A DNA stretch of 4,814 bases from IMG/VR virus record IMGVR_UViG_2529293173_000003, one strand, 5' to 3'. This DNA is from a virus (taxonomy: Duplodnaviria > Heunggongvirae > Uroviricota > Caudoviricetes). Position numbers: made by a program. How positions within the stretch are numbered: the stretch's first letter is position 1; each line of letters begins with the position of its first letter. Shown here piece by piece: positions 3,001 through 4,814 of this stretch.

Positions 3001-4814
3001 ATTAAAAACATGTTACCAATGTTAGGTGAAAAAAAACTGGTTTCATCCATAACAAAAGAGGATTTACTTTTCGTAAGGAGAGATTTGTTGACCGGTTACC
3101 AAAAGCTTTCTAATGGAAAGACTTCTTCCATAAAAGGGCGCTCAGTGGTCACGGTAAACTACTATATGACAACCATAGCTGGAATGTTTCAATTTGCAAC
3201 AGATAATGGTTATACCTCAGGAAACCCATTTAACGGTCTGGCTCCCTTAAAAAAGTCCAAGGTAAAACCAGATCCTCTCACCCGTGACGAATTTATTCGT
3301 TTTATTGAGGCTTGCCGTCATCAACAAACAAAAAACCTGTGGATTCTCGCTGTATACACGGGTATTCGTCACGGGGAGTTGGTATCGCTGGCATGGGAAG
3401 ATATAGACCTTAAAGCAAGGACTATAACCATCCGTAGAAATTATACAAAACTTGGCGAATTCACTCCACCAAAAACCGATGCAGGCACCGGAAGGACAAT
3501 TCATCTGGTTCAACCAGCTATTGATGCTCTTAAAAGCCAGGCGGAAATGACCATGCTTGGAAAGCAACATTCTGTAGAGGTGAAGCAGAGGGAATATGGG
3601 AGAACTGCTGTGCATAAATGCACTTTTGTTTTTAGTCCTCAGGTAACAAAACAGCAGCAGTTGTCCGGACCTCACTACAAGGTTGACTCCATCAGGGAGT
3701 CATGGACAAGTATCTTAAAACGCGCAGGTCTGAGACACAGAAAATCGTACCAATCCAGGCATACTTATGCATGCTGGTCACTTGCCGCAGGAGCTAATCC
3801 TAGTTTTATCGCAAGCCAGATGGGCCACACAAACGCACAAATGGTATTCAATGTTTACGGAGCATGGATGAAAGACAACAATCACGAACAGATAGAACTC
3901 CTTAACAAAAGACTATCTGAAAGTGTCCCATGTATGCCCCATAAGAAAGCAGGGTAAAATAAAAACTTGCAAAATCAATTAGTTTACCCTTAATCCCTGT
4001 CACGTTACGCGCGTGACGCAACATTTTTAAAAATCGACGAAGATCGTCCAGGAGCGCCGTTTTTCAAGGGTTGGATAGATGATTCGTTTACCATGTCGAT
4101 GAACTTCGACGAATTTCGCCGATAAAAAGTGTCCCATACATGCCCCATTGATGCCCCATAAACAATATCAGGAATTGACACTGGTTATCCATACAGATAA
4201 AAATAACACCTGTACATAACTACAGTTACAGGAGGGTGTTATGCGTGTTGAGATCTGTATCGCTAAAGAAAAAATCACTAAAATGCCAAACGGTGCTGTG
4301 GATGCGTTAAAGGAAGAATTAACCCGACGCATCAGTAAACGTTATGACGATGTAGAGGTGATCGTAAAAGCCACCAGCAACGATGGCCTTTCTGTTACGC
4401 GCACCGCCGATAAAGATTCAGCTAAAACTTTTGTTCAGGAGACGCTGAAAGATACCTGGGAGTCTGCTGACGAGTGGTTTGTTCGCTAATAAACACGTAA
4501 ATCGGTAACGGCTGGAAATCATTCAATACTCGCACTATCGAAAGTTCACCAGCCAACCGCGACACGCTCTTACATACGAAGTGCCGCGCTTTCCTTAATA
4601 ATTTTTTAGCAGTACTGTGTAAATAATGAGCGACCTAATCCATGCATGACGCGTAGTGCCTATTGTGCATCTTTCTGCGTCTCTTTTTACTGGACCCAAG
4701 CCAATGATGCTGGCGATACCATTCCCGCCAGGCCCACTTACAACAGTAAAATTCGGAGCTCTGCCTTTACATACAATACAATCTACCTAACAAATATCCC
4801 CCGGACATTGCAAC

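Follow-up and report, generated by a model that had tools for sequence, protein, structure and literature searches.

The window analysed here is the whole 4,814-nucleotide (nt) stretch of the IMG/VR virus record IMGVR_UViG_2529293173_000003 (Caudoviricetes), and its last part encodes an 82-amino-acid (aa) DinI-like protein in the open reading frame (ORF) at 4241-4489 (+ strand; ATG at 4241, stop codon at 4487-4489). We consider it probable that this gene, which is H0001/ECs_2939 of the Shiga toxin (Stx) phage VT1-Sakai, is a self-contained, LexA-controlled 'moron' cassette with a RecA-filament-binding product, placed between the tail-fibre genes and the phage attachment site (attP).

Much of this anatomy was already on record. 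With an offset of 1740 from our locus L005 to the window, the VT1-Sakai GenBank record AP000400.1 lists a 'putative promoter of H0001 and H0002 genes' at 4175-4203, a 'LexA protein, putative SOS box' at 4208-4227 and 'H0001, DNA-damage-inducible protein I, similar to E. coli K12 DinI' at 4241-4489. The protein, promoter and SOS box of VT1-Sakai H0001 are identical to those of the window. In O157 Sakai the gene is named ECs_2939, and its product is WP_001261937.1 in RefSeq ('DinI-like family protein'). ECs_2939 is also the inner primer target in the polymerase chain reaction on the left yehV junction that types Stx prophage occupancy (PMC8309913). The DinI-like gene has thus already been annotated, together with promoter and SOS box, and it is a common accessory gene of lambda-like phages. 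Only the double operator and the relationship to ykgJ described below go beyond AP000400.1, and these are minor additions. For ECs2939, Z3305 or the function and expression of Stx-phage DinI, the searchable library returned only annotation-level mentions.

Promoter, LexA-type boxes and product

The gene is preceded by a sigma-70-type promoter (4175-4203, + strand) with the -35 hexamer TTGACA at 4175-4180, a 17-nt spacer and the -10 hexamer TAAAAA at 4198-4203. It is annotated in AP000400.1 and conserved in 23 distinct promoter variants taken from phage records and IMG/VR contigs; a consensus promoter scan reads it as TTGACA-18-AAAAAT (10/12). Two LexA-type boxes were found here. Box 1, CTGGTTATCCATACAG (4181-4196), occupies 16 nt of the 17-nt gap that separates the -35 and -10 hexamers; it was identified by motif scan, heterology index and conservation. 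Box 2, CTGTACATAACTACAG (4210-4225), is an exact CTGT-N8-ACAG that begins 7 nt past the -10 hexamer, lies over the expected transcription start and was found by motif scan as well as in AP000400.1. On inspection of the sequence, a Shine-Dalgarno AGGAGG (4230-4235, + strand) ends 5 nt before the ATG. The -35 TTGACA, LexA box, strong ribosome-binding site and 82-aa ORF described in an earlier, sequence-only reading of this DNA are therefore all in place, and its claim of a LexA-repressed promoter agrees with box 2 just 3' of the -10 hexamer, to which box 1 in the spacer is now added. From this layout we conclude that the putative operator is double, a feature noted neither in that reading nor in AP000400.1.

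Box 2 is present in 23 of the 23 promoter variants and box 1 in 22, the sole exception being phage BP-4795. The CTG and CAG triplets are invariant in all copies of box 2 and, in those 22 variants, of box 1, with spacers that vary. In mEp460, 1720a-02 and PhiR12, box 1 is itself a perfect CTGT-N8-ACAG. A box also recurs 31-37 nt before the ATG, in otherwise unrelated upstream DNA, in Klebsiella phage P18-100, the Gifsy class (Gifsy-1), mEp237 and K-12 dinI; in YeP2 no box was present at this distance. Based on a rough heterology index, built on an informal list of LexA sites and not on the published matrix, box 2 (7.67) and box 1 (8.65) are the top two 20-mers of the window on both strands. Both values are within the span of the sites used to build the index, whereas the candidate that comes next scores above 12. 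The case for LexA boxes is thus made by position and conservation, not by the raw motif count. Among relatives, the dinI homologues of Gifsy-1, -2 and -3, which have LexA boxes, respond to nalidixic acid with inductions of 23-, 14- and 4.6-fold, respectively (PMC8072944), and after mitomycin C the Gifsy-2 homologue's protein builds up (PMC3121763). By sequence and by analogy with these relatives, LexA control of the DinI-like gene is very likely.

The product belongs to the DinI family, as had been proposed; matches in Pfam, PHROG, NCBIfam and the Protein Data Bank (PDB) agree on this. The match to Pfam PF06183 (DinI) spans all 63 positions of the profile (E 1.2e-19, 70.8 bits, cut-off 24.2), and that to PHROG 189, 'RecA filament binding protein DinI' (E 4.1e-31), takes in the second half only of a 151-position profile. 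Residues 1-81 match residues 1-79 of the DinI chains 1GHH and 7YWA (E 1.1e-12), and BLASTP aligns it full-length with K-12 DinI at 45% identity (E 8e-21). A single-sequence AlphaFold model (predicted local distance difference test score 77) has the order strand-helix-strand-strand-helix, plus a short extra helix at residues 9-13.

Each residue with which DinI contacts RecA is retained or replaced conservatively. Cryo-electron microscopy of the RecA-DinI complex showed that filament stabilisation needs a pocket of L13, L21, W71, W77 and F78, which receives F203 of RecA, together with an acidic patch of E24, E69 and D76 (PMC9926225). In the same order, these residues align with M15, L23, W73, W79, F80, E26, D71 and E78 of the phage protein, so that five of the eight positions are identical and three conservative. 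E. coli DinI (b1061; 1GHH, 7YWA) resembles the phage protein in length class, in RecA-contact residues and in having a LexA box just 5' of its ATG. It differs in that the phage protein has 2-residue insertions after K9 and D59, and in that the phage gene is multi-copy, phage-borne and provided with two operator-like boxes, whereas one was found for K-12 dinI. Pairwise ratios of nonsynonymous to synonymous substitution rates (dN/dS) are 0.09-0.25 among six members of the 82-aa class, and we therefore conclude that the gene is maintained by purifying selection.

Several points weigh against a LexA-controlled cassette with a RecA-binding product. Box 1 has CTGG in place of CTGT and is degraded in BP-4795, and the heterology index was not derived from the published matrix. 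The BP-4795 homologue carries Arg at the W73 position, so that, to judge from the alignment, some members may not bind RecA. Although 1GHH and 7YWA come out on top when the PDB is searched with the single-sequence AlphaFold model, the superposition is poor (template modelling score 0.35, root-mean-square deviation ~10 Å). Non-polar deletions of the Gifsy-1 and Gifsy-3 dinI homologues had no significant effect on induction, in phages whose repressors are not cleaved (PMC3121763). Finally, the searchable library yielded no published experiment on this gene or on any member of the 82-aa class.

Phage context, paralog status and attachment site

Along the window, ORF and domain searches gave genes typical of the early and recombination region of a phage (Ea22-like, DUF551, DUF4222), an excisionase (DUF1233), a 428-aa tyrosine integrase, an intergenic stretch and then the DinI-like ORF. 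We compared the window with 5426 complete E. coli genomes, the set to which all genome counts below refer. The sole complete match at 100% is NZ_CP133119.1, a circular 'plasmid' of 47,874 bp from an O157:H7 isolate; as it is circular and has stx1a and a full lambdoid gene set, we take it to be an excised phage genome. In O157:H7 chromosomes the match starts only at ~3990, and the DinI-like gene adjoins btsS/yehU, with convergent tail-fibre, lom and J genes on its far side. In the phage records VT1-Sakai and YYZ-2008, window positions 1-4015 are matched at one end and the dinI gene at the other.

Base-by-base comparison with the VT1-Sakai junctions resolves this arrangement. The two prophage junctions in yehV/mlrA have in common a core, ccctgtcacgttacgcgcgtg (3995-4015); the window follows the int-side junction as far as 4015 and the dinI-side junction from 3995 on, which agrees with AP000400.1, where a 20-bp attachment site is annotated at both ends. 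Because the shared core maps to both junctions, the window contains attP: it represents Stx1a phage VT1-Sakai/Sp15/CP-933V in its excised, attP form. Once integrated in yehV/mlrA, prophage Sp15 has int at one end and the DinI-like gene at the other. Relative to H0001 in VT1-Sakai, the DNA of the window is joined through attP to the int end and not to yehV'. The sequence-only reading had placed the gene next to the integrase/att junction, which is correct for the circular form (the core lies upstream, 160 nt from the -35 hexamer) and does not hold for the lysogen, where the gene is at the opposite, tail-fibre end by yehU/btsS. Whether the gene belonged to the prophage or to flanking DNA had been left undecided there; it lies inside the phage genome.

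The comparison also bears on paralogy. All 5426 genomes, O157:H7 included, have the housekeeping dinI between bssS and pyrC, nearly always once. The promoter-plus-gene unit of the window was found in 1878 genomes (35%), at 1-8 places in each, and at 3-5 places in the O157:H7 strains listed. Against the NCBIfam DinI equivalog model NF007893 (cut-off 111) the phage protein scores 71.6 bits and K-12 DinI 178.2. By these sequence comparisons the DinI-like gene is classed as a phage-borne paralog and not the housekeeping ortholog, and the earlier judgement that it is too divergent to be the dinI ortholog stands, given the 45% identity, the equivalog score and the universal presence of chromosomal dinI.

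Two classes of dinI genes can be told apart in phage records. Genes of the 82-aa class lie between the tail-fibre genes and int/att, and occur in VT1-Sakai, many Stx1, Stx2a and Stx2c phages, mEp460, cdtI, 1720a-02, BP-4795, PhiR12 and Klebsiella P18-100. Those of the 77-aa class lie in the nin region, with a small ORF and then a DUF1367 gene after them, as in Gifsy-1, mEp237 and Klebsiella ST13-OXA48phi12.4; this class is the LexA-controlled dinI-antirepressor-irsA operon of Lemire et al. (PMC3121763). The window gene shows the marks of a moron: it has its own promoter, sits between the structural genes and att, and is independent of the phage backbone. The cassette stands beside differing integrases and tail-fibre genes in mEp460, 1720a-02, BP-4795, PhiR12 and Klebsiella P18-100. 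When plasmids were searched by tblastn, most hits were to excised phages or phage-plasmids and to dinI of the chromosomal type, and 48 of the 54 matched records were non-mobilizable. Among IMG/VR contigs, loci L086-L095 have 5'-truncated DinI-like copies, covering residues 11-82 at 85% identity, that lack the promoter and both LexA boxes; from their structure these are probably pseudogenes.

The integrase (2671-3957, + strand; 428 aa) reads towards attP and is supported by Pfam Arm-DNA-bind_2 and Phage_integrase and by the int annotation in AP000400.1 and RefSeq. A repeat count found ATGCCCCAT in three exact copies in the window, where 0.04 are expected, flanking the attP core. One copy, within the 3' end of int (3934-3942, + strand), is on the P-arm side, and two in tandem are on the P'-arm side (4140-4148 and 4151-4159, together 4140-4159, + strand). 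The copies belong to a 23-nt repeat family, D1, at 3920-3942, 4126-4148 and 4137-4159. The tandem pair lies 16 nt upstream of the dinI -35 hexamer, and BP-4795, which has a related integrase, has four tandem copies at the equivalent dinI-side place. From their sequence and arrangement, the ATGCCCCAT repeats are probably arm-type binding sites of the integrase.

Some further features of this DNA were observed. The att core lies within a palindrome (3998-4023; TGTCACG..CGTGACG) with a T-run on the P' side, which was scored as terminator-like in the scan; in the lysogen it would fall at the yehV'-prophage junction, just upstream of dinI. NZ_CP133119.1 (locus L003) carries IS1203 inside ninG and frameshift flags in the J, L, tape measure and capsid/protease genes, which reflect either a defective phage or assembly errors. 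At 671-1184 the window has two overlapping ORFs in different frames, 671-847 and 825-1184; RefSeq annotates the first only and leaves 848-1180 empty, and a Pfam search with the second (825-1184) found no family. This may be a frameshifted gene.

Downstream DNA and competing explanations

The DNA that follows dinI is related to the host chromosome, a point that the sequence-only reading missed, as it did the second LexA-like box. Window ~4432-4738 has about 84-86% DNA identity to the core ecpE-ykgJ intergenic region and the first 114 nt of ykgJ, a stretch matched in 5240 of the 5426 genomes, and we annotate 4495-4738 (+ strand) on this basis as a decayed ykgJ upstream region and ykgJ 5' part. 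The phage copy of ykgJ starts with an ATG at 4626, suffers a 1-nt deletion and meets a stop after 7 codons. 'H0002' of AP000400 is another frame of this remnant, starting at 4646; family searches with it found no match. On the chromosome (locus L097, 2368-2744, of a K-12-like laboratory strain used as reference), the stretch upstream of an intact ykgJ has in turn a DinI-like remnant, truncated at its 5' end and broken in frame (two segments, tblastn E 8e-5). IMG/VR locus L022 (1-715) has the complete arrangement: an intact 82-aa DinI, 137 nt, a same-strand 109-aa YkgJ homologue (94% identical to chromosomal YkgJ of the same reference strain) and then convergent tail-fibre genes. The decayed ykgJ in the window, the DinI remnant beside chromosomal ykgJ and the intact pair in L022 together suggest that the ancestral cassette was probably a two-gene dinI-ykgJ unit. 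Judged by sequence, core E. coli ykgJ looks like a fossil of that unit; capture of chromosomal ykgJ DNA by a phage is equally possible.

Two side observations concern this region. The third-best 20-mer of the rough heterology index (12.4), TACTGTGTAAATAATGAGCG at 4613-4632, is half of a LexA-like site and overlaps the start of the ykgJ remnant; the chromosomal ykgJ stretch aligned to it reads GTACTG-GTGAATTATGAGC. A search of 3900-4814 for RNA families gave nothing above threshold and only a weak match to Rfam CssrB, a Shigella small RNA, on the minus strand at 4558-4628 inside the ykgJ-upstream homology (22.6 bits against a gathering threshold of 76, E 0.031), which is probably due to chance.

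One alternative is that the promoter matters chiefly for downstream cargo (ykgJ ancestrally, effector genes such as nleA in BP-4795), with dinI no more than the first gene in line, and that the VT1-Sakai cassette is a half-decayed leftover of little function. AP000400.1 does label the promoter as that of both H0001 and H0002, and the intact same-strand ykgJ homologue of L022 begins only 137 nt past dinI. In BP-4795 (locus L008, 248-2993) genes for a putative avirulence protein and for the type III effector NleA come after the DinI-like gene on its own strand, so that the LexA-type promoter may, from this gene order, head an effector locus. No terminator was found after dinI in the consensus scan, and the fold of 4470-4660 was no better than that of shuffled sequences (z 0.13); the frameshift in the ykgJ copy of the window would fit a leftover. 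However, purifying selection acts on dinI itself, 1878 genomes retain the gene together with its promoter regardless of the downstream DNA, and many phages have nothing on the same strand between dinI and the convergent tail-fibre genes. We consider this explanation unlikely.

Another explanation, to which we give still less weight, is that the DinI fold has been re-purposed, for example in an antirepressor pathway, and does not act on RecA. There are models for this (PMC3121763): Gifsy phages have antirepressors linked to dinI homologues under LexA control, and in coliphage 186 the two are fused. The Gifsy-1, -2 and -3 homologues (e.g. STM2621) are, like the window gene, prophage-borne, of the DinI family and preceded by a LexA box, and have been shown to be damage-induced. 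They differ in being 77 aa long and 42% identical to the window protein, and in lying in the nin region after the replication genes, each at the head of an operon that also encodes a small antirepressor and has an irsA/DUF1367 gene. In addition, Gifsy phages have non-cleavable repressors, whereas the repressor of the window phage is annotated as a LexA-family protein. The Tum antirepressor of phage 186 is likewise the product of a LexA-controlled phage gene and has a DinI-like segment (PMC3121763), but in its 146 aa an antirepressor half is fused to the DinI-like half, whereas the window protein is DinI-like alone. The match to only the second half of PHROG 189 could be read as favouring such a role. 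ORF and family searches of the window, however, found no ORF of antirepressor size with a family match downstream of the DinI-like gene, and no antirepressor fused to it, and the ykgJ remnant lies there instead. The cassette is placed at the tail-fibre/att end and not in the nin region, the repressor is by annotation of the self-cleaving LexA/CI type, and all the RecA-contact residues are kept, as identical or conservative residues. A Gifsy- or 186-type antirepressor module was rejected for this window on the lack of an antirepressor ORF, the position between tail fibre and att and the annotation of the repressor as a LexA-family protein.

That the LexA boxes arose by chance, leaving the gene constitutive or silent, appears very improbable. 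The count of CTG-N10-CAG in the window speaks for this idea: three were found where 0.98 are expected, and 17 of 200 shuffles reach three, which is not significant alone. The third copy (519-534) is in coding DNA and has a GC-rich spacer. Yet the 50-nt promoter contains both of the top-scoring LexA-like sites in the window, and a pair 16-40 nt apart arose in just 87 of 20000 shuffles. The invariant triplets with variable spacers over the 23 variants, the position of the box in unrelated upstream DNA and the experimental SOS induction of relatives all argue in the same direction. That the gene is the conserved chromosomal dinI ortholog of its host, with no link to the phage, shares with the data nothing but DinI family membership and can be rejected with near certainty, as the protein falls below the equivalog cut-off, is 45% identical to K-12 DinI, is encoded away from the bssS-pyrC locus that holds housekeeping dinI in every genome, and travels with phage genomes.

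Predicted role in the lysogen

If the cassette is, as we favour, a LexA-controlled moron with a RecA-binding product, it would act as follows. In an undamaged lysogen, host LexA on both boxes would silence the promoter independently of phage CI. After DNA damage, RecA would be activated and LexA cleaved, and the gene would be transcribed from the still-integrated prophage. The product would then bind RecA filaments on single-stranded DNA in their groove, as DinI does, and add to the host DinI pool; O157 genomes have at least 3 copies of such DinI-like genes. At moderate levels it would be expected to stabilise filaments, as for DinI, and at high levels to compete with UmuD and CI-type repressor at a common site on RecA, the L2 loop and basic patch. 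This competition is predicted because the same RecA site is used by all of them. A dose-dependent choice between stabilising and competing is established for E. coli DinI according to literature cited in PMC3121763. Since annotation places the phage repressor in the LexA family (self-cleaving type), extra DinI-like protein could, by dose, prolong the RecA signal or compete with CI and UmuD. The proposal in the sequence-only reading that the gene could tune repressor cleavage and induction is speculative; any effect on induction of the Stx1 prophage is expected to be modulatory rather than essential.

A more speculative extension, which we regard as improbable on present evidence, is that the LexA-gated DinI paralogs of lambdoid prophages (up to 8 per genome) jointly form a phage-encoded dosage buffer that acts on activated RecA. 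Because of the double operator, they would not be expressed before LexA had become deeply depleted, and the resulting burst of DinI-like protein would stabilise filaments and compete with CI-type repressors and UmuD for the RecA groove. If this were true, the buffer would set both the threshold for Stx prophage induction and toxin release and their timing, and would couple the induction of co-resident prophages.

As it stands, the gene itself matters little, since it is already in AP000400.1 and LexA-controlled prophage dinI homologues are established in Salmonella. A binder of RecA filaments in phages whose induction and Shiga toxin release need RecA-stimulated repressor cleavage would nevertheless bear on the reason why DNA-damaging antibiotics worsen disease caused by enterohaemorrhagic E. 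coli. For this question of Stx induction, the putative tandem operator and the probable dinI-ykgJ module are small but useful additions to the annotation.

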